Assembly (NCBI GenBank): GCA_963741385.1
Contig: CAVUHO010000003.1
Coordinates: 257,129 to 321,128, forward strand
Direction: 5' to 3'
Length of the DNA: 64,000 bases
Source of the DNA: Candidatus Sulfomarinibacteraceae bacterium
GTDB lineage: Bacteria > Acidobacteriota > Thermoanaerobaculia > Thermoanaerobaculales > Sulfomarinibacteraceae
The position numbers were made by a program, and so were the translations under genes. Positions 12,618 through 20,604 of the stretch are shown in pieces; position 1 is the first letter of the stretch; each line of letters starts with the position of its first letter. The notes under the pieces were generated by a model. The model had not been told where the DNA came from and did no database searches. It saw nothing but the letters and a program-made list of their open reading frames with translations.

Positions 12618-12785
12618 GGGATCGGATCTTGGATATTGATTTCTGATATTGGATCCGTCCACCCATTCGGCAGCCGGGACGGCTGCCCCACAACCGTCTG
12701 TCAGCATCTTGTGGGGCACGCGTCTCGCGTGCCGGGCGGGTGGATGGATCGAGCACCGAGTATCGCGCATCCAGTATCATCCTCT
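12618..12785. repeat. composite intergenic repeat: degenerate 7-mers, CCACCC core and inverted REP pair
   Basis: GGCAGCCGGGACGGCTGCCCCACAA (12669-12693) faces TTGTGGGGCACGCGTCTCGCGTGCC (12709-12733), flanked by CCACCC/GGGTGG and degenerate 7-nt periodic tracts. Confidence 0.7.
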
Positions 12786-12787
12786 GC

Positions 12788-13162
12788 ATGCCACGCATCT
12801 CGCGGTTCTCCGAGTTCGACCTCACCGAACAGCGATCGCGTTTCTACGCCGCTGCCGTGCCGGCAGGAACGCTCGACGATGTCAAGGAGGCGCTCGCTGA
12901 ACGCAAGAAGAAGTACCACAAGGCGCGCCACCACTGCTGGGCGTGCCGGGTGCGGGACGAAAACGGGCAGGTGGTGGAGCAGGCGCGGGACGACGGCGAG
13001 GTCGGCCGACCGGGGATGAAGATGCTCGAGCTGCTTCGCCACCACGACCTCGAGGGCCTGCTGGTGGTGTCGCGGATCTTCGGCGGCGTCAAGCTCGGCC
13101 CGGGAGGCGTGGGTCGTGCCTTTCGCGATGCCGCCGAGGGTGCACTGCGAGGCCTCTCGTAG
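12788..13162 (+). CDS. yigZ: YigZ/IMPACT family protein (N-terminal domain only)
   Basis: SRFYA, ARHHCWA, DDGE..RPG, VVSRIFGGVKLGPGG. Confidence 0.85.
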   Translation: MPRISRFSEFDLTEQRSRFYAAAVPAGTLDDVKEALAERKKKYHKARHHCWACRVRDENGQVVEQARDDGEVGRPGMKMLELLRHHDLEGLLVVSRIFGGVKLGPGGVGRAFRDAAEGALRGLS

Positions 13163-13221
13163 GGCGTCCGCGAGGCGGTCATTCCGCAATCCGAAATCCG
13201 AATTCTGGATGGGTGGGCTGG

Positions 13222-13323
13222 GTCCAATCTCTCCATGTGCCACGGTTTTTTTCCCGCGGTGTATGGGAGTTGGCCTGAATTGTGGGCGTGGAGTCTTGTC
13301 GTGAGGTTGCTGGTGGAGCCGAA
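13222..13323 (-). pseudogene. GIY-YIG endonuclease fragment
   Basis: FGSTSNLTTRLHAHNSGQLPYTAGKKPWHMERL matches the GIY-YIG core pattern G-x-T-x-N-L-x-x-R-L-x-x-H-N-x-G...YT...PW; no intact start or C-terminus. Confidence 0.6.
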
Positions 13324-13479
13324 GGCGTCGACACTGCGGGACAGCGGCGCAATGTGAACGCGGTCGGGTCGCAGAGCGAGCCGGCCTGCGGTCACGCGGC
13401 GACGGTCCGTAGACCGATTCCCTTCGGCTGAGCCAGAGACGAGAAAAGCCGCCCGTAAGGGCGGCGAATTCGAAGTCTC
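13311..13479 (-). repeat. 169-bp tRNA-Ala-3'-end-tagged unit (third copy)
   Basis: Same unit as 20191-20359 and 20360-20528; contains terminator hairpin 13448-13465. Confidence 0.95.
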
Positions 13480-13505
13480 TGGTGGAGCCGCGAAGAATTC
13501 GAACC
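13480..13505 (-). other. att-like displaced tRNA-Ala 3' end (T-arm mimic plus CGGCTCCACCA)
   Basis: Minus strand GGTTCGAATTCTTCGCGGCTCCACCA versus tRNA GGGTTCGATCCCCTTCGGCTCCACCA. Confidence 0.7.
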
Positions 13506-13697
13506 ACAGCGTTCATCCCAATCGAAGTGCCGATCCTCGAGACCAGGATGCCGCCGATTTATCAGCGAATTGCCGTGAAGGCGAATCTACTCCATGAGCT
13601 TGGGTTGAGTCAGTCAGAGATTGGGCGCCGGTTGGGGGTTGATCGTTGGGCTGTCGGAAAGGCCCTTCGGTGGCTCGCAAAACAAAAGACAGGTTGA
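13482..13697 (+). CDS. small helix-turn-helix protein starting inside the att-like site
   Basis: LHELGLSQSEIGRRLGVDRWAVGKAL is an HTH pattern; start codon uncertain. Confidence 0.5.
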   Translation: MEPRRIRTTAFIPIEVPILETRMPPIYQRIAVKANLLHELGLSQSEIGRRLGVDRWAVGKALRWLAKQKTG

Positions 13698-13699
13698 AC

Positions 13700-14533
13700 T
13701 TACTCTTTCCCGTCGAGCTTTACTCCACCTTTCCAGGGTTCGCCAGGCAAGCGTGACACCAGGCTTTCGAGAACTGCATCCATGGCTGTGTCGCAATCCC
13801 AGGACAAGCCTGGGCGTAGGAGCGGCCGCACGTCATCGCGGAATTCGGGCTGTTGACGTTTTTTGGCCAGATTTTCTTCCAACTGCGCTCGGCTGACTCT
13901 GTGTCCGTCTTCGGCCATGTACCGGTCGAAGCAGGCGAGAAGTGTTGCTGGGTCGCAGCGCGCAGTGTCCAGCGCGTACCAGACATCGAAGAGGTCTCGG
14001 CCCTTCCTCCTCTGGTACAGCGCCCGCAGCTTGGTACAAAGCAGCTCGTTGATAGAGTAGGTCGCAACGTTTGCCACACCGCTGAACCAGGGGTTCGTCA
14101 CCTCGAACGGCACCTTTTTCACGCCCGATCCGGTGAAATGTTCGCGGGTGTTGATCTCGATCTTCAGCCGAAGCGTGAGCGGTGGAACATCCTCGGACTC
14201 GAATCGATACACGAGGGTGACGCGGCCCTCTTTGAGAGTGCGGCGGGGCTTCCCGAGCCATGGATCCAAGATGGCACGCGCCCGATCGAGGGTCTCGCCG
14301 ATTGACTCGGCCCTCTCCTGAACCAGATCGATGTCCTCGGAATATCGAGCCGGAGGTGTGAGGTAGATCTTGTACAAAGCGGTCCCGCCACGAAACGCCA
14401 GGCTATCCGCCAATTGGGTATCGGAAAAGAGGTTGACGATCGCGCGGCTTATCACCAGATCTTGCTCGACCTGAGCGTCGAGCGGCCACGGCGCTTGAGC
14501 TCTCCATGCGGTGATGTAGTCCTTGGGGATCAT
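13700..14533 (-). CDS. abiEii: AbiEii/AbiGii nucleotidyltransferase toxin (type IV TA)
   Basis: LAFRGGTALYK...RYSEDIDL, KIEIN, KLRALYQRRKGRDLFD; ATGA-coupled to the upstream antitoxin. Confidence 0.9.
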   Translation of the reverse strand: MIPKDYITAWRAQAPWPLDAQVEQDLVISRAIVNLFSDTQLADSLAFRGGTALYKIYLTPPARYSEDIDLVQERAESIGETLDRARAILDPWLGKPRRTLKEGRVTLVYRFESEDVPPLTLRLKIEINTREHFTGSGVKKVPFEVTNPWFSGVANVATYSINELLCTKLRALYQRRKGRDLFDVWYALDTARCDPATLLACFDRYMAEDGHRVSRAQLEENLAKKRQQPEFRDDVRPLLRPGLSWDCDTAMDAVLESLVSRLPGEPWKGGVKLDGKE

Positions 14534-15312
14534 TCGTCCGGCTCCACTTCGACGTTGACGATGATCTTCCAGCGAGGGTTCCTGACTCCACCGGCGATTG
14601 GCGCAGCGCGCCGCAGCGGGGTATAGCTCCGGGCATTCTCAAGCACGAAAGGCCTGAGAATTTGAGCGACATCTTCTCGCCTGACCAGCTCCAAGAGATA
14701 TCCCAAACGCTGTGACCAACTCACGGGACAGAGACGAGCGGTTTCGAGCAGTCCTTCAGCCACCATCTCCTCGGAGAGCTCAGACAGGACTGTGGCGACG
14801 TTGTCGAGACCACCAGCACGATTGGGGTAGCCGACCAGCTCGAGCGCCGTTCCTTCCGGGGTCGAATACCGCAGCACCCCGCGCGGCGTGTTGAGCCTGG
14901 TGACCGGCATTCTTTCGATGTCGCCACGGGCGATGAACTCGACTCTCACCTGCCCACAGGTGATGGCCTGACGGTTTTTGCGTACCATCACCTGGGTTGC
15001 CTGAGGTCGTTGATGCGCGGCGCCGTGCCTTTCGGCCGCACTCAACAGACAGAGGTAATAGGGCTCATCCCAGAATTGCATCAGATGGTCGACAAATTGC
15101 TCCGCCGGCAGGCAACCCAGGCGTTTGTACTCGGGCGGAACGATGACATGAAAGCTGCGCACGGGCTGCGCGATCAGTCCTTGCCGCTTCAGTCGGAGCA
15201 ACTGGGCACGCACTGCCGGAGGATTACCCTCGACAGCTTTGACAGCGTCCGCCGTTGTGAAGTGGTAGCGCCCATTCGATGCCAACTCCCGTATGTACTC
15301 ACTCGCTCGCAT
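14530..15312 (-). CDS. abiEi: AbiEi-family antitoxin (type IV TA)
   Basis: N-terminal wHTH (GRYHFTT), YYLCLLSAAERHGAAHQRPQ, STPEGTALELV; RBS AGGAG. Confidence 0.85.
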   Translation of the reverse strand: MRASEYIRELASNGRYHFTTADAVKAVEGNPPAVRAQLLRLKRQGLIAQPVRSFHVIVPPEYKRLGCLPAEQFVDHLMQFWDEPYYLCLLSAAERHGAAHQRPQATQVMVRKNRQAITCGQVRVEFIARGDIERMPVTRLNTPRGVLRYSTPEGTALELVGYPNRAGGLDNVATVLSELSEEMVAEGLLETARLCPVSWSQRLGYLLELVRREDVAQILRPFVLENARSYTPLRRAAPIAGGVRNPRWKIIVNVEVEPDE

Positions 15313-15356
15313 AACGTTACGATTCTCCTATAAAGTAATGTCAATCATCGTATCAA

Positions 15357-15392
15357 AGAAGAAACGTCCTGTTCTTTTGTTACGTTTCTTCT
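15357..15392. promoter_or_regulatory. 11-bp perfect inverted repeat upstream of abiEi, candidate autoregulatory operator
   Basis: AGAAGAAACGT-N14-ACGTTTCTTCT in an AT-rich patch 45-80 bp upstream of the abiEi start. Confidence 0.5.
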
Positions 15393-15656
15393 CCAAAATA
15401 ATATTTTTTGTGATATTTTGCAAGAATTGTATTTCTGAAGAGTCTGTTCAGGGGAAAGGAGGTTCTTTTCGGGCGCCTTCCGTTTCACCGTGCCGGGTCC
15501 CGAGGATGATCCGTTCAGCCGCGTCGAATTCTGCCCGAGAAATGACATTTGAAACAAACAAAATGTGTCTTTGCACGACGGTCGCCTTGACTGTAGGGGC
15601 CGTTCGGGTCACGCTGAGGCAGCCCGTCCACGCTGCAGGAGACGTCGGGCGTCACT

Positions 15657-16670
15657 GTGGCTCAAAGCTGCGCGGCCCGCTACCGGGCCCGGAATCCGCG
15701 TGCGACTCCCCTTTACCGGCTCTTCGAGACCCACTTCGACGAGGTGAGGGGGCAGTGGGAGGAGCGCTTCGAGCGGCGGTGCGGATTCTGGCGCGGCTTC
15801 GTCGACGAGGGGATGCGGCCGGGGATGGTCGCCGTGGTCCAGACCGCGGGCGACCTGGCCAATTGGCACCCACATGTGCACGCGATCGTGTCGCGCGGCG
15901 GCTGGATGCAGGATGGTGAGTGGATCCCGATCGCCTTCGTCGATGAGCACTCAGCGGAGCTGCTCTACCGGCACAAGGTGATGCGCCTGCTGCAGGATGA
16001 GGGGTTGCTCTCAGACGAGCGGACCGAGCTCCTACTGTCGTGGCGACACACCGGGTTTTCGGTGCACAACCGGGTTCGGGTGGAGCCCGAGGATCAGCCG
16101 GCGCAATTCGTCCGACGAATTGCAGCGTACTCCAACGTGTCGAGGGGCAAGCGCCGGAAGGCTGAGGCTGAGAATGGGGGGGTTGGGGGTGCGGGCGCCG
16201 GCCCGGCCTCCCGTGCGGCTCGTGCCGAGGCCCGCAACGCCCGCGCGCTCAGGCGAAGCTGGGCACAGCTGATCAAGCGGATCTACGAGGTCGACCCGCT
16301 GGTGTGCCCGTCCTGCGGTTCAGAGATGAAGGTGATCGCGTTCATCACCGAGCACGACGTGGTCGACGCGATCCTGAGGCATCTCGCGAAGACGGAAACG
16401 CGGTCTCCCCGCGGCCCGCCAGGCGCGGCGACCCTCCCCGCCACCCCCTGACTCCATCTCGGCTGCGGCCGTCCGTGCGGGGTGCGTCTATGGAGGCGGC
16501 GGCCGCACGGGGGGCCGAGGTTCGTAGCGTGTTGTCCCGGGACACGCTCTCCCTAACCCCGGGATCTGCCGTATCGGAGGCCGCTCGGGGCATGCGAGCC
16601 CATCTTGGGCCCCGAATAAGCGCCTCAGCCCCGTGCTAGGCTGGCGCTGAACGAAAGGAAATTCCTATCC
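15657..16670 (+). mobile_element. IS91-family (HUH/Y2) element, internally deleted transposase 15657-16451 plus oriIS-like end
   Basis: YRARNPRATPLYRL start, WHPHVHAIVSRGG (HUH), SWAQLIKRIYEVDPLVCPSCGSEMKVIAFI end. The Zn-finger block and the Y2 catalytic block are missing. AAATTCCTAT at 16659-16668 matches the IS91 oriIS motif. Confidence 0.8.
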
Positions 16671-16825
16671 CTCAGCTCGACCGCGTGCTCGATCGCAGCC
16701 ACCTGATGCCCCCCGGCGTGGTCGAGTCCTTGCTGCAGGGAATGAAGGCCGGCGACGACGTTTGATCTGCCGGCCTTTGAACGGGTGAGGTGAACAAACC
16801 AGTGAGTAACTCAAAGAAGACCGTC

Positions 16826-18253
16826 ATGAAAATGACCACCAGGATTCCGCCGGAGATCACCACGCCGGATTCGGTCGAGACCAGTCTCGGCACCTTGAAG
16901 TTCTTCGATGGCCTGCCGGACCAGGACACCGTCCAGAAGGTTTATGACAACCTTGACCGCATGCGTGGCGTCGAGGTGTTCCTGAACACGATGGCGCCGG
17001 CTTCCCTCCTCGCTAACATCGAGGGGCTGAAGAGCGTGGGCTGTGACAGTTACTCCGCTGTCATCCATGAAGACCGTGTGGATGCCAAGACGCTGTTGCT
17101 GACGCCGAATACGCAGACGGCCACCCTCTGGGCGTTCATGGACTTGAAGGACGGGCCGCTGGTGGTTGAGGTCCCGCCCGGCGTACTCGGTGTGGCCGAT
17201 GATGCGTGGATGCGATACGTCGTCGACCTGGGCTTGGTCGGCCCCGACAAGGGCAAGGGCGGCAGGTATCTCTTCTTGCCTCCGGGCTATACCGGTCCGG
17301 TGCCGGAAGGCTACTTTGTGGCGAAACTGCGCACCTATAAGGTCTGGCTTGTTGCCCGAGGATTTTCGGACAAAGGTGACACCGGCCCGGCTGTAAGAGC
17401 CTTCAAGGACCAATGGAAAGTCTATCCCTTGGCGGCGGCGGCCAATCCGCCGAAGATGAAGTTCATCAACGGTTCCGGCCTCTATTTCAACACCATCCAC
17501 GCGGTGAACTTCGCATTCTACGAAGAGGTCAACAAGGTTATTCAGGAAGAGCCGGCGGATTCAGCCGACCCTGAGATTCTCGGTCAGCTTGCCGCCATCG
17601 GCATCGTGAAAGGCAAGCCTTTCGCACCCGACGCGCGGATTAAGAAGATCCTTACCGACGCAGCGGCCATTGGCAACGCCACGGCGCGTGCCCTGTCGTT
17701 CAAATCTCGTGATGAGCAGATGTATTTTTACCCAGGCAAGTCCTGGTTCACGCCATTCGTCGGTGGCAGCCACGAGTTCATTCAGAACAACGTCCGCCTG
17801 CTCGACGCGCGAACCGTGTTCTTCTACATGGCCACGGGTATCACCCCAGCCATGAGTGTGAAAATCATCGGCGCTGGGTCGCAATACGCGGGGGCCACGT
17901 TCGACGCTGATGGCAATTACCTGGACGGCGGGAATAACTACCGGCTGCAACTGCCACCCAATGTCCCCATCAACAACTTCTGGTCGATCATTCCCTACGA
18001 CACGCAGACCCGCTCGGTCCTGCAGACCGACCAGCGCGACACCGCCCTGACCAGCAACTCGGGCACGGTGGCATCCAACCCCGATGGCTCGGTGGACATC
18101 TACTTCGGACCGAATGCGCCAGCGGGCAAGGAAAGCAACTGGGTGCAGACGACCCCTGGCAAGGGCTGGTTCACCATCCTGCGCCTCTACGGCGCGCTCG
18201 AACCTTGGTTCGACAAGACCTGGCGGCCGGGCGAGATCGAACTGGTGAAGTGA
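16826..18253 (+). CDS. DUF1254/DUF1214 domain protein (copy A)
   Basis: LLLTPNTQT, DLKDGPLVVEVPPG, GPDKGKGGRYLFLPPGY, NNFWSIIPYD, DGSVDIYFGP, LRLYG; no signal peptide. Confidence 0.9.
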   Translation: MKMTTRIPPEITTPDSVETSLGTLKFFDGLPDQDTVQKVYDNLDRMRGVEVFLNTMAPASLLANIEGLKSVGCDSYSAVIHEDRVDAKTLLLTPNTQTATLWAFMDLKDGPLVVEVPPGVLGVADDAWMRYVVDLGLVGPDKGKGGRYLFLPPGYTGPVPEGYFVAKLRTYKVWLVARGFSDKGDTGPAVRAFKDQWKVYPLAAAANPPKMKFINGSGLYFNTIHAVNFAFYEEVNKVIQEEPADSADPEILGQLAAIGIVKGKPFAPDARIKKILTDAAAIGNATARALSFKSRDEQMYFYPGKSWFTPFVGGSHEFIQNNVRLLDARTVFFYMATGITPAMSVKIIGAGSQYAGATFDADGNYLDGGNNYRLQLPPNVPINNFWSIIPYDTQTRSVLQTDQRDTALTSNSGTVASNPDGSVDIYFGPNAPAGKESNWVQTTPGKGWFTILRLYGALEPWFDKTWRPGEIELVK

Positions 18254-18282
18254 GCAAACCAATTGGTAGCTCAAAGGAGACC

Positions 18283-19680
18283 ATGATGAAAATGACCACC
18301 AAGATGACCGACGGTCAGCCGCTCCCCGGCACCAGGCAATCCGTTCCTGATCTCGAAGAACAGGTGGCTTACCACCGCGCGTTCGAGGCCGTGGTGTGGG
18401 CGATACCCGCGTTGGCCATCCACCGCTTTCGCGAAGGGCTTTATGAAGTGCCCGGCGTTGAGGACAACGTCGTTCTCGCCTTTTCAGGGACGTTGAAAGC
18501 GCGGCATGAAGTCATCACCGCCAACACGGCGGTCCCGTACATCTCGGCGTTCACCGACCTGCGAAAAGGTCCGATGGTCGTCGAAGTGCCCGCGGCCACT
18601 GACAAGGCGAGCCTGTACGGCCAGGTGGTCGACGCCTGGCAGGTCACTATCGCCGGCGTCGGCCCCTCGGGACCGGACAAGGGGGCCGGCGGCAAGTACC
18701 TGTTCATCCCACCCGGTTACCAGGACGCGATTCCGGAAGGTTTCTTCCCGATCCGTTCCACCAGTTACCGGCTCGCATTGGCTTTCCGTTCCGTTCCGGG
18801 CAAGGGCGCCAGCCAGGCCGACGCCTACGCCTACACGAAGACATTGAAGATGTATCCGCTCTCGGAAGCCGACAACCCCAAGCCCACACGATTTGTGGAC
18901 GGCTTTCCGCTTGCGATCCAGACGCTCCCGTACTACGACATCCGCGCGCTGCAGGACATCCATGACTTTGTCAGCGTCGAGCCGGTGGAAGAGCGCGACA
19001 AGGTCATGATCGGAATACTCGCCACCATCGGCATCGAGAAGGGCAAGCCGTTCAATCCGGCGCCGAAGATGCAGGCGGCGATGGCACGGGCTGTCGTCGA
19101 TGCCTACCACTACATGCAGGGACTGACCCTGAAGTTGCTGCAGGAGAACCTGTGGTGGCCCGATCGGCATTGGGCCATGGTCCTGGTTCCGGACGAAAGC
19201 GGCGGGTTCGAGTTCATCACGGATCGGGCTGTCGAAATCGACAAGCGTGCCGCGATCTGGTTCCCCGCCATTTTCCTCCCTCCCAAGTTCAATGAAAACG
19301 CCGCGACGGTGTACGTGTCGCCGATTGCCGACAAAGACGGGAATGCCGTGGAAGCGGGCAAGCTCTACCGCATCCGGATCCCCAAGGACACCCCGGCCAA
19401 ACAGTTCTGGTCGATCACCGTGTACGACAACGCGACCTGGGGCTTCATCATCAACCCGCAGGATCGTTCCGGATTGGGGATGTTCGACAAGGACAAGATG
19501 ACGGTGAACGACGACGGGAGCGTGGACGTCTACGTAGGGCCGAAGGCTCCCGACGGCCTGGAATCCAACTGGATTCCGAGCATGGACAAGAAGCCCGTCA
19601 TCTGGCTGCGGCTGTACGGACCGGATGAGCCGTTCTGGAAGAAGACCTTCAAGATGCCCGACATCGAACTGGTGAAGTGA
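18283..19680 (+). CDS. DUF1254/DUF1214 domain protein (copy B)
   Basis: ITANTAVPY, DLRKGPMVVEVP, GPDKGAGGKYLFIPPGY, QFWSITVYD, DGSVDVYVGP, LRLYGP; RBS AAGGAG. Confidence 0.9.
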   Translation: MMKMTTKMTDGQPLPGTRQSVPDLEEQVAYHRAFEAVVWAIPALAIHRFREGLYEVPGVEDNVVLAFSGTLKARHEVITANTAVPYISAFTDLRKGPMVVEVPAATDKASLYGQVVDAWQVTIAGVGPSGPDKGAGGKYLFIPPGYQDAIPEGFFPIRSTSYRLALAFRSVPGKGASQADAYAYTKTLKMYPLSEADNPKPTRFVDGFPLAIQTLPYYDIRALQDIHDFVSVEPVEERDKVMIGILATIGIEKGKPFNPAPKMQAAMARAVVDAYHYMQGLTLKLLQENLWWPDRHWAMVLVPDESGGFEFITDRAVEIDKRAAIWFPAIFLPPKFNENAATVYVSPIADKDGNAVEAGKLYRIRIPKDTPAKQFWSITVYDNATWGFIINPQDRSGLGMFDKDKMTVNDDGSVDVYVGPKAPDGLESNWIPSMDKKPVIWLRLYGPDEPFWKKTFKMPDIELVK

Positions 19681-19744
19681 CCACGCAACCACGTGCCGGT
19701 GGACGCTTTCTGCTGCCAGCCTTCCTTTCCTCAAGGAGGTCCTA

Positions 19745-19888
19745 ATGAAGGTGACGCCTGAGACCTACGTGCGCGCGGAAACCGATCGACAGTTCGGCAT
19801 CGTCGCCCGGATGGCGGGCGGCGTGAACCAGCTCTTCCATTTCCGTCGTCCCACCCCCCTGGACCAGCAGAACATCGTGCGGATGAAT
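19745..19888 (+). pseudogene. third DUF1254-type gene truncated after 48 codons
   Basis: RBS AAGGAGG; MKVTPETYVRAETDRQF...PTPLDQQNIVRMN stops resembling the family exactly where RDTLYS is expected, at a 63-bp hairpin. Confidence 0.7.
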
Positions 19889-19951
19889 GGGTGCCAGGTA
19901 CGGAGTTACGGAGTTGTGAGGTGTAACTGCGTAACTCCGTATCCGGCACCC
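19889..19951. repeat. 63-bp imperfect palindrome at the island right junction
   Basis: 27-nt arms GGGTGCCAGGTACGGAGTTACGGAGTT / AACTGCGTAACTCCGTATCCGGCACCC with 3 mismatches and a 9-nt loop. Confidence 0.85.
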
Positions 19952-19955
19952 AGTG

Positions 19956-20370
19956 GGCGGTGTCAATCTCGGCCCGGGAGGCGTGGGTCGTGCGTTTCGC
20001 GATGCCGCCGAGGGTGCACTGCGAGGCCTCTCGTAGGGCGTCCGCGAGGCGGTCATTCCGCAATCCGAAATCCCCAATCCGAATTCTGGATGGGTGGGCT
20101 GGGTACAATCTCTCCATGTGCCACGGTTTTTTTTCGCGGTGTATGGGAGTTGGCCTGAATTGTGGGCGTGGAGTCTTGTCGTGAGGTTGCTGGTGGAGCC
20201 GAAGGGGTCGACACTGCGGGACAGCGGCGCAATGTGAACGCGGTCGGGTCGCAGAGCGAGCCGGCCTGCGGTCACGCGGCGATGGTCCGTAGACCGATTC
20301 CCTTCGGCTGAGCCAGAGACGAGAAAAGCCGCCCGTAAGGGCGGCGAATTCGAAGTCTCTGGTGGAGCCG
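19956..20370 (+). repeat. direct repeat copy 2, starting with an orphan yigZ 3' end (19956-20036)
   Basis: GGVNLGPGGVGRAFRDAAEGALRGLS* duplicates the yigZ C-terminus; the rest matches 13163-13490. Confidence 0.95.
20102..20203 (-). pseudogene. GIY-YIG fragment, second copy with a -1 frameshift in a T-run
   Basis: FGSTSNLTTRLHAHNSGQLPYTAKK then shifts frame relative to copy 1. Confidence 0.55.
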
Positions 20371-20528
20371 AAGGGGTCGACACTGCGGGACAGCGGCGCA
20401 ATGTGAACGCGGTCGGGTCGCAGAGCGAGCCGGCCTGCGGTCACGCGGCGATGGTCCGTAGACCGATTCCCTTCGGCTGAGCCAGAGACGAGAAAAGCCG
20501 CCCGTAAGGGCGGCGAATTCGAAGTCTC
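20191..20528 (-). repeat. two tandem 169-bp units, each ending in the last 17 nt of tRNA-Ala
   Basis: TGGTGGAGCCGAAGGGG recurs at 20191, 20360 and 20529 (period 169). Confidence 0.97.
20493..20514 (-). terminator. Rho-independent terminator after tRNA-Ala (repeated in each 169-bp unit)
   Basis: Minus strand GCCGCCC-TTAC-GGGCGGC followed by TTTTCTC. Confidence 0.7.
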
Positions 20529-20604
20529 TGGTGGAGCCGAAGGGGATCGAACCCTCGACCTCAGCATTGCGAACGCTGCGCTCTCCCAATTGAGCTACGG
20601 CCCC
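20529..20604 (-). tRNA. tRNA-Ala (anticodon CGC)
   Basis: 76 nt GGGGCCGTAGCTCAATTGGGAGAGCGCAGCGTTCGCAATGCTGAGGTCGAGGGTTCGATCCCCTTCGGCTCCACCA; cloverleaf, G3:U70 pair, encoded CCA. Confidence 0.98.

Follow-up and report, generated by a model that had tools for sequence, protein, structure and literature searches.

Tandem repeats linked to tRNA genes in Escherichia coli (tyrT/rtT type) consist of units, every one of which closes with a copy of the tRNA 3' end, and integrase-borne genomic islands target the 3' ends of tRNA and tmRNA genes and carry direct repeats of that end at their flanks. The locus described here lies in a 64-kb window (the whole stretch of DNA that was analysed) and resembles both. 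Its 169-bp units stand in tandem directly behind a tRNA gene and end in the last 17 nt of that tRNA, as the E. coli repeats do; however, they belong to another phylum, differ in sequence, and are tRNA-Ala/tmRNA mosaics that coexist with GIY-YIG cassettes of the same layout. Like the islands, the inserts lie at a tRNA or tmRNA 3' end and are flanked by direct repeats of it, but they measure only 170–560 nt, and neither the cassette, nor the units, nor the 6.5-kb segment of the locus contains an integrase.

Two GIY-YIG systems are also comparable. SegB is a free-standing GIY-YIG homing endonuclease of the tRNA gene cluster of phage T4/T6 (PMC2330249; PMC13096335), and it shares with the present genes a position among tRNA genes, a patchy presence of the selfish type, and segmental amplification of neighbouring DNA. 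SegB is a larger, phage-encoded protein, whereas the proteins considered here are chromosomal putative nucleases of 82 aa known from their sequences. The Ssn family (cd10448) comprises GIY-YIG nucleases of a single domain that act on ssDNA and have SRM/NTS hairpin repeats at their flanks (Chenal et al. 2025, PMC11893778). Set beside our subfamily by architecture and SRM pattern, it appears to be the closest described system: the intact relatives are likewise single-domain GIY-YIG proteins, their 82 aa fall within the Ssn size range of about 80–100 aa, and their conserved flanking hairpin is also a dispersed repeat, which gives an insertion-sequence-like architecture. In contrast, the C-terminal half of the proteins differs (FERYLKSHSGRAF), the published SRM pattern HGTCWY...RNCYNB occurred within 500 nt in only 4 of 80 loci, a different hairpin being conserved, and the subfamily is fixed behind tRNA and tmRNA genes, which the Ssn paper does not mention (PMC11893778). 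We found no published description of a GIY-YIG subfamily behind tRNA/tmRNA genes.

Organization of the tRNA-Ala(CGC) locus

The features of the locus, in window coordinates, are as follows.

12740..13162, plus strand: yigZ/UPF0029 gene (PF01205, 92 bits), convergent with tRNA-Ala(CGC)
13232..13310, minus strand: GIY-YIG gene relic, copy 1, corresponding to codons S25 to about I50 of an 82-codon gene; reads SNLTTRLHAHNSGQLPYTAGKKPWHM
13311..13321, minus strand: junction zone, copy 1; tRNA-end copy CGGCTCCACCA and ancestral gene CGGCCGCACCA agree at 9/11 bases, with the crossover inside the zone (pairwise alignments)
13311..13479, minus strand: 169-bp tRNA-linked repeat unit, 13-kb copy, differing at 2 positions from the 20-kb units
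13480..13512, minus strand: decayed tRNA-Ala 3' scrap GGTTCGAATTCTTCGCGGCTCCACCA, adjoining a small HTH ORF
13491..19955, no strand: 6.5-kb variable segment between two ~410-bp repeats (Pfam scans)
20113..20190, minus strand: GIY-YIG gene relic, copy 2, with a 1-nt deletion in an A-run that causes a frameshift
20191..20528, minus strand: two identical tandem 169-bp units (20528 to 20360 and 20359 to 20191), each closing with CCCCTTCGGCTCCACCA
20529..20604, minus strand: tRNA-Ala(CGC) gene (ARAGORN), the orthologous locus being present in 24/25 genomes of the genus

On the minus strand, tRNA-Ala(CGC) is followed by the two 169-bp units, by a tail beginning GCAACCTCACG..., and by an orphan copy of the yigZ 3' end, the last 81 nt of yigZ being repeated at 19956–20036 (repeat families D1–D3). 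A second copy of unit, tail, and yigZ end runs from 13479 to 13082 and abuts the complete yigZ gene. The minus strand contains TTCGGCTCCACCA at four places, namely the tRNA-Ala(CGC) end (20529–20541), the two unit ends (20360–20372 and 20191–20203), and 13311–13323, whereas shuffled sequences give an expectation of 0.18. An Rfam search of 13100–13800 at E ≤ 10 returned no match.

Pfam analysis of the 6.5-kb segment identified an HTH ORF, an AbiEii/AbiEi pair, a remnant of an IS91-type Y2 transposase, and two DUF1254/DUF1214 genes; none of the large ORFs at 13482–19680 encoded a tyrosine or serine recombinase, as an integrase-type tRNA island would require. Blocks of this segment recur, reordered, in genomes G004, G007, and G016. 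yigZ and tRNA-Ala(CGC) are convergent neighbours throughout the genus, separated by 2.4 kb (G004) to ~31 kb (G024), and this interval is an insertion hot spot behind the tRNA. The blocks shuffled among genomes (L179–L182) include the AbiE pair, the Y2 transposase remnant, and the HTH ORF with its tRNA scrap. The frame of this ORF (13482–13697, plus strand) begins within the decayed tRNA scrap of the opposite strand. The HTH-plus-scrap block was also found in G004 and in G005 (L012/L051), where it precedes an intact GIY-YIG cassette.

Identity of the GIY-YIG relic

The 13-kb copy translates in frame as FGSTSNLTTRLHAHNSGQLPYTAGKKPWHM, that is, RVHIAPLSRSVDAF-GST-SNLTTRLHAHNSGQLPYTAGKKPWHM. An earlier note, made from the letters of this DNA, had reported the same reading in both copies; the letters do agree up to the A-run, but the 20-kb copy lacks one A there and shifts frame before KKPW (...YTAKKNRGT). 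Because the 20-kb copy alone is frameshifted, the two copies are decaying independently.

Against PF01541 the relic scored 15 bits (E 0.032), below the gathering cut-off of 22.6, whereas intact orthologues scored 40–53 bits, so that the HMM support sought for the peptide was sub-threshold for the relic itself and clear for its orthologues. Given this difference, the relic is a piece of a PF01541 member and not itself one. The alignment began at the G of GST and left RVHIAPLSRSVD outside the match. NCBIfam assigned no family to either the relic or the intact protein.

Nucleotide comparison revealed that the relic (13232–13321 and 20113–20201) is 92% identical over 90 nt (E about 1e-31) to a gene lying behind tRNA-Ala(CGC) in G016, and 81% identical to an intact gene of G021. 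The derivation of the relic from this putative nuclease gene is proven by the orthologues, not by the Pfam score. A six-frame search of 60 relatives gave matches to the relic that span its residues 14/15–45 only, the best of them behind tRNA-Ala genes. The intact gene of G021 lies at such a place; across tRNA-linked homologues, the resemblance of the coding sequence to the tRNA 3' end did not exceed chance.

Aligned with the intact protein, the relic retains G22, T24, R30, H34, and N35. It lacks Y8 and Y20, the place of Y20 being occupied by an F from the tRNA copy, as well as residues 1–21 and 51–82, including the glutamate of FE(R/D)YL; the full set of two motif tyrosines, catalytic Arg, and catalytic Glu is thus not present. 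With the motif tyrosines and the glutamate-bearing C-terminal half missing, it cannot encode a nuclease, and the proposal that amplification of the unit could make the gene fails on the same absent residues. The gene has also lost its 3' third, at another junction (GGCACATGGA|GAGATTGG), and about a third of the gene survives. By its alignment, the relic is a dead internal fragment (about 79–90 nt, codons ~22/25–50 of 82) of a small gene predicted to encode a single GIY-YIG domain. It represents ordinary gene decay and advises caution in inferring function from chimeric junctions.

Orthologous genes within the genus

The intact homologues are 82-aa proteins that contain only the GIY-YIG domain; among proteins of solved structure, they are closest to the UPF0213 proteins BH0048 and EF2693 and to SLX1. 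At tRNA-Ala(CGC), G021 carries an intact 82-codon ORF that starts 98 nt after the tRNA: MAPYHYVYILISERDATRRYTGRTKNLEKRLCAHNSGQLPYTAEYKPWHIEMAIAFRSPQKAAKFERYLKSHSGRAFASKHF. The orthologous gene is frameshifted in G016 and has lost its start codon in G010, and in other relatives it is cut to 16 codons or represented by its leader alone. Across the genus, the gene at this site is intact once and broken in four ways, with the leader only in five genomes and a plain terminator in about nine. In G016, the Y2 remnant (equivalent to window positions 15545–16672) is followed in turn by the GIY gene, 170 nt, tRNA-Ala(CGC), and dodecin. In G021, tRNA-Ala(CGC) is closely preceded by two Acido-Lenti-1 motifs (RF01687, 51 and 58 bits) in opposite orientation (L048, 1078–1123 and 1227–1272).

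At the tRNA-Ala(GGC) site, G004 and G020 carry an intact gene and G000, G007, and G016 have none; in G021 the gene is present (tblastn residues 1–78), with a TAG reported there. Close relatives are thus polymorphic for presence and absence at one site, as is expected of homing endonuclease genes, and the patchy distribution at tRNA-Ala(CGC) is typical of selfish genes.

In G000, the genome to which the window belongs, the tRNA-Ala(GGC) gene beside tRNA-Sec is followed by a two-hairpin leader without an ORF and then by a stretch resembling the start of module B of the 169-bp unit (L183, C10:1071700–1074700). The only intact small GIY-YIG gene of this genome (C10:1748308–1748595, L004/L187) encodes 96 aa, scores 59 bits against PF01541, and belongs to another subfamily; it is flanked on both sides by tandem CTGTCATCCCGACCGACGGCTCGCCCC-like units, and no tRNA lies nearby. 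HHalign comparison of our subfamily with this gene, which is not tRNA-linked and whose Ssn membership is unestablished, aligned 44 N-terminal columns only.

The hairpin leader

Between the tRNA and the start codon lies a non-coding leader that is conserved across phyla. The word (G/C/T)CT(T/A/C)C(G/A) occurred 0–5 nt after the tRNA end in 49/54 loci, at +1 in 39 of them, against a control rate of 5.7%. This word opens a long hairpin, which is followed by a second hairpin (H2) of the form TGCC.CGGCGTAGCC-loop-GGCGAAGCCGGGC. In H2, 91.5% of cells were paired and the inner stem exchanges CG for UA; because the search expression fixed the outer stem, only covariation of the inner stem counts as evidence. 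The G021 leader folded with z = -7.3 (as DNA).

H2 is also dispersed, with 0–62 copies per genome in the genus against 0–2 for the reversed pattern; 11 copies are present in this genome, and the pattern was not found in the 64-kb window itself. Rfam searches of 16 related loci at the gathering threshold identified only tRNA, tmRNA, tRNA-Sec, and Acido-Lenti-1, and the leader had no match. At one G021 locus (L033, C1 about 775.3–776.4 kb), a tmRNA gene is followed by one module-B unit and at least four tandem GIY-type leaders without a nuclease ORF, each leader repeat consisting of hairpin 1, hairpin 2, and CTACGCCCTGGCAAGCC; from this array, leaders appear to multiply on their own.

Composition of the repeat unit

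A DNA search across 77 genomes of the family resolved the 169-bp unit into module A (a terminator hairpin), module B, and a 15–17-nt copy of the tRNA-Ala(CGC) 3' end. Module A (unit positions 1–60) is the ordinary trailer/terminator of tRNA-Ala(CGC) in many relatives. Module B (positions 61–169) is a separate repeat that lies behind the tmRNA gene in relatives, in one copy or two tandem copies, each closing with a 22-nt copy of the tmRNA 3' end, GTCGATTCCCACCGCCTCCACCA. The tmRNA-linked module-B units of the relatives contain no nuclease ORF, and none follows them directly. By this composition, the 169-bp unit is not nuclease-derived. With its copies lying directly 3' of a tRNA, in tandem, and each closing with a tRNA 3' copy, it has the arrangement of a tRNA-linked repeat.

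A comparable insertion is seen at tRNA-Ala(GGC): in G016, a 192-nt unit with a terminal 22-nt tRNA copy stands between the tRNA and the hairpin leader, whereas in G000 and G007 the leader abuts the tRNA directly, giving an empty site against the filled site of G016. This comparison indicates that such units do insert at tRNA ends with duplication of the tRNA 3' end. One layout, an insert that begins right after the tRNA end and closes with a tRNA 3' copy, is common to the 169-bp unit, which has no ORF, and at least some GIY cassettes.

Origin of the chimeric junction

The three sequences that meet at the junction were compared. The tRNA ends as ...GATCCCCTTCGGCTCCACCA|GAGAC, the unit end joined to the relic reads ...GTCGACCCCTTCGGCTCCACCA|GCAACCTCACGACAAG, and the G016 gene at the matching place reads ...CACTACACCGGCCGCACCA|GCAACCTCACGAAAAG. 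Upstream of CGGC, the window matches the T-arm/acceptor of the tRNA (GTCGACGCCTTCGG) and not the gene (CACTACACCGG); downstream of CACCA it matches the gene; and between these two points the tRNA end and the gene agree at 9/11 bases. The earlier note had described a GIY-YIG remnant whose G-S-T codons are the tRNA 3' end. The fragment is real and the reading is in frame, but it is the tRNA-end copy at the close of the 169-bp unit that supplies the F, G, S, and T codons. The ancestral codons Y-T-G-R-T (ACC GGC CGC ACC A) resemble the tRNA end (TTC GGC TCC ACC A) at these 9/11 bases, and through this resemblance the F-G-S-T reading may have arisen. A recombination scar would best explain the overlap of G-S-T with the tRNA sequence. 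In G010, the G-x-T codons are GGC TCC ACT; the ancestral codon could likewise have been TCC (Ser), in which case the G-S-T codons would be partly original. By our estimate, roughly 3% of 250-nt genes would hold a 9-of-11 look-alike by chance, and the microhomology is for that reason suggestive rather than proven.

We consider it probable that the relic is the middle piece of a GIY-YIG gene linked to tRNA-Ala(CGC), which was joined to the tRNA-end copy of the unit by recombination at the look-alike and was later duplicated. The ancestral position of the gene is directly downstream of tRNA-Ala(CGC), where relatives still carry it; in G016 the tRNA end and the look-alike in the gene form direct repeats 170 nt apart. 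This genome has lost the hairpin leader together with the 5' third of the gene, and what is left of the gene abuts the tRNA 3'-end copy of the 169-bp unit. A deletion or unequal recombination between the tRNA end and the look-alike would have joined the tRNA-end copy to codon 25 without a break in the frame; either earlier or later than this event, the 169-bp unit would have entered at the tRNA end and been duplicated there. The ~410-bp block comprising yigZ end, relic, and unit may then have been duplicated on both sides of the 6.5-kb variable segment. The order and nature of these events were not directly observed: the intermediate, a tRNA fused to mid-gene, was seen in no relative, and the yigZ-to-tRNA-Ala intervals of G004, G007, G014, and G016 have blocks in common from which no single event order emerges. 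Deletion or unequal exchange between the tRNA end and the look-alike would be the simplest reading.

A less likely explanation, to which we give a minor share of our confidence, is a mis-targeted insertion, in which a trans-acting machinery for tRNA-Ala/tmRNA ends (nuclease or recombinase) used CGGCCGCACCA in the gene as a secondary target and so placed the unit within the gene; a subsequent deletion between tRNA-end copies would have removed the leader and the upstream half of the gene. The precise insertion of units and GIY cassettes at tRNA ends with duplication of the tRNA 3' end fits this explanation, as does a junction that falls exactly on the 9-of-11 look-alike. However, neither the 5' half of the gene nor the leader is left between the tRNA and the units, one step more is needed than for a simple direct-repeat deletion, and the machinery is hypothetical.

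The earlier note itself proposed that unit and nuclease are one decayed tRNA-targeting element, with its attachment site in the G-S-T codons and its GIY motif supplied by the unit end. We regard this as very improbable, even though the reading is in frame, its V-H-I stands at a spacing resembling that of V-Y-I, and the gene lineage is indeed tRNA-linked. The bases read as RVHIAPLSRSVD (CGCGTTCACATTGCGCCGCTGTCCCGCAGTGTCGA) belong to the tmRNA-linked module B, which has no nuclease, and lie before the start of the Pfam alignment at G; the V-to-G spacing of this reading is two codons shorter than in true orthologues. The single element dissolves into an ordinary tRNA-Ala(CGC) trailer and a tmRNA-linked repeat. 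An attachment site within the coding sequence is contradicted by the intact homologues, whose start codons lie 77–476 nt past the tRNA end. The similarity of coding sequences to tRNA tails was also no higher than chance: the best match of the last 16 nt of the tRNA averaged 9.11 of 16 across 55 tRNA-linked loci, against 9.10 ± 0.09 for shuffled tails. The predicted constraint on the G-S-T codons at tRNA-linked loci did not appear either, the G-x-T codons varying freely (GGC CGC ACC, GGA CTA ACG, GGT ATA ACC, GGG TGC ACT, and others).

A chance resemblance without GIY-YIG ancestry, with which the sub-threshold Pfam score of the relic would agree, is refuted by its 90-nt match to a gene in synteny, intact alleles of which exceed the PF01541 cut-off, and we attach practically no weight to it.

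Subfamily distribution and tRNA linkage

More interesting than the relic is its lineage of 82-aa putative nucleases, whose genes in at least 10 phyla follow tRNA-Ala, tmRNA, and other tRNAs at a fixed distance. A profile built from an alignment of six intact proteins was scanned over one genome per species and recovered 157 relatives, of which the best 80 were analysed; the subfamily comprises 769 cluster representatives at E ≤ 1e-10. The best 80 loci came from Acidobacteriota, Verrucomicrobiota, Planctomycetota, Alphaproteobacteria, Bacteroidota, Cloacimonadota, Marinimicrobia, Desulfobacterota, Lentisphaerota, and candidate-phyla-radiation groups.

A tRNA or tmRNA on the same strand ended within 500 nt upstream of the gene in 49 of the 62 loci with at least 500 nt of upstream sequence, and never downstream, which bears out the tRNA association that had been predicted for intact homologues. 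The linked RNAs were tRNA-Ala in 21 loci, tmRNA in 15, and other tRNAs in 13, and the distance from RNA to gene was 77–480 nt, with at least ten phyla represented. Of the remaining 13 loci, five or more, one of them from Rhizobium phaseoli, carry tRNA/tmRNA 3' scrap in that place. We estimate the chance expectation of such linkage at well under 1%. In a control subfamily, drawn from small GIY-YIG genes of the same bacterial family, a tRNA lay within 1.5 kb in 2/22 loci, and in 0/18 for its close members.

A copy of the tRNA/tmRNA 3' end was found 18–40 nt after the stop codon in four candidate-phyla-radiation loci only, and not in acidobacterial loci. In one of the four (L116), the copy comprises about 18 exact nt and is followed by the start of the leader again, which is the layout of the ORF-less units.

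The 82-aa cassettes, which comprise hairpin leader and ORF and in some lineages close with a tRNA 3' copy, might together with the ORF-less units form one integrase-free mobile class, the former autonomous and the latter non-autonomous. Its members would insert exactly at tRNA/tmRNA 3' ends and favour acceptor ends of the alanine type (...CTCCACCA). Cleavage by the nuclease, either at this site or at its hairpin, would initiate insertion, and the relic junction would be an off-target hit. We hold this scenario to be doubtful. If the cassettes do move by their own enzyme, they would constitute a minimal tRNA-end-targeting mobile element, and the subfamily may yield very small site-specific nucleases, as the related Ssn family has been shown to do.

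Individual loci showed further variation. Two different GIY-YIG cassettes stand in tandem behind one tRNA-Ala(CGC) in Verrucomicrobia UBA1319 (L078), and the GIY ORF of a Holophagae MAG (L056) extends about 80 codons beyond the usual end. A third, distant GIY-YIG type, with about 40% identity to the L004 type, lies ~150–330 nt behind a same-strand tRNA-Arg(ACG) in two genomes (L202, G026:C107; L203, G093:C27), and since this type also adjoins a tRNA, tRNA linkage appears to recur in other subfamilies.
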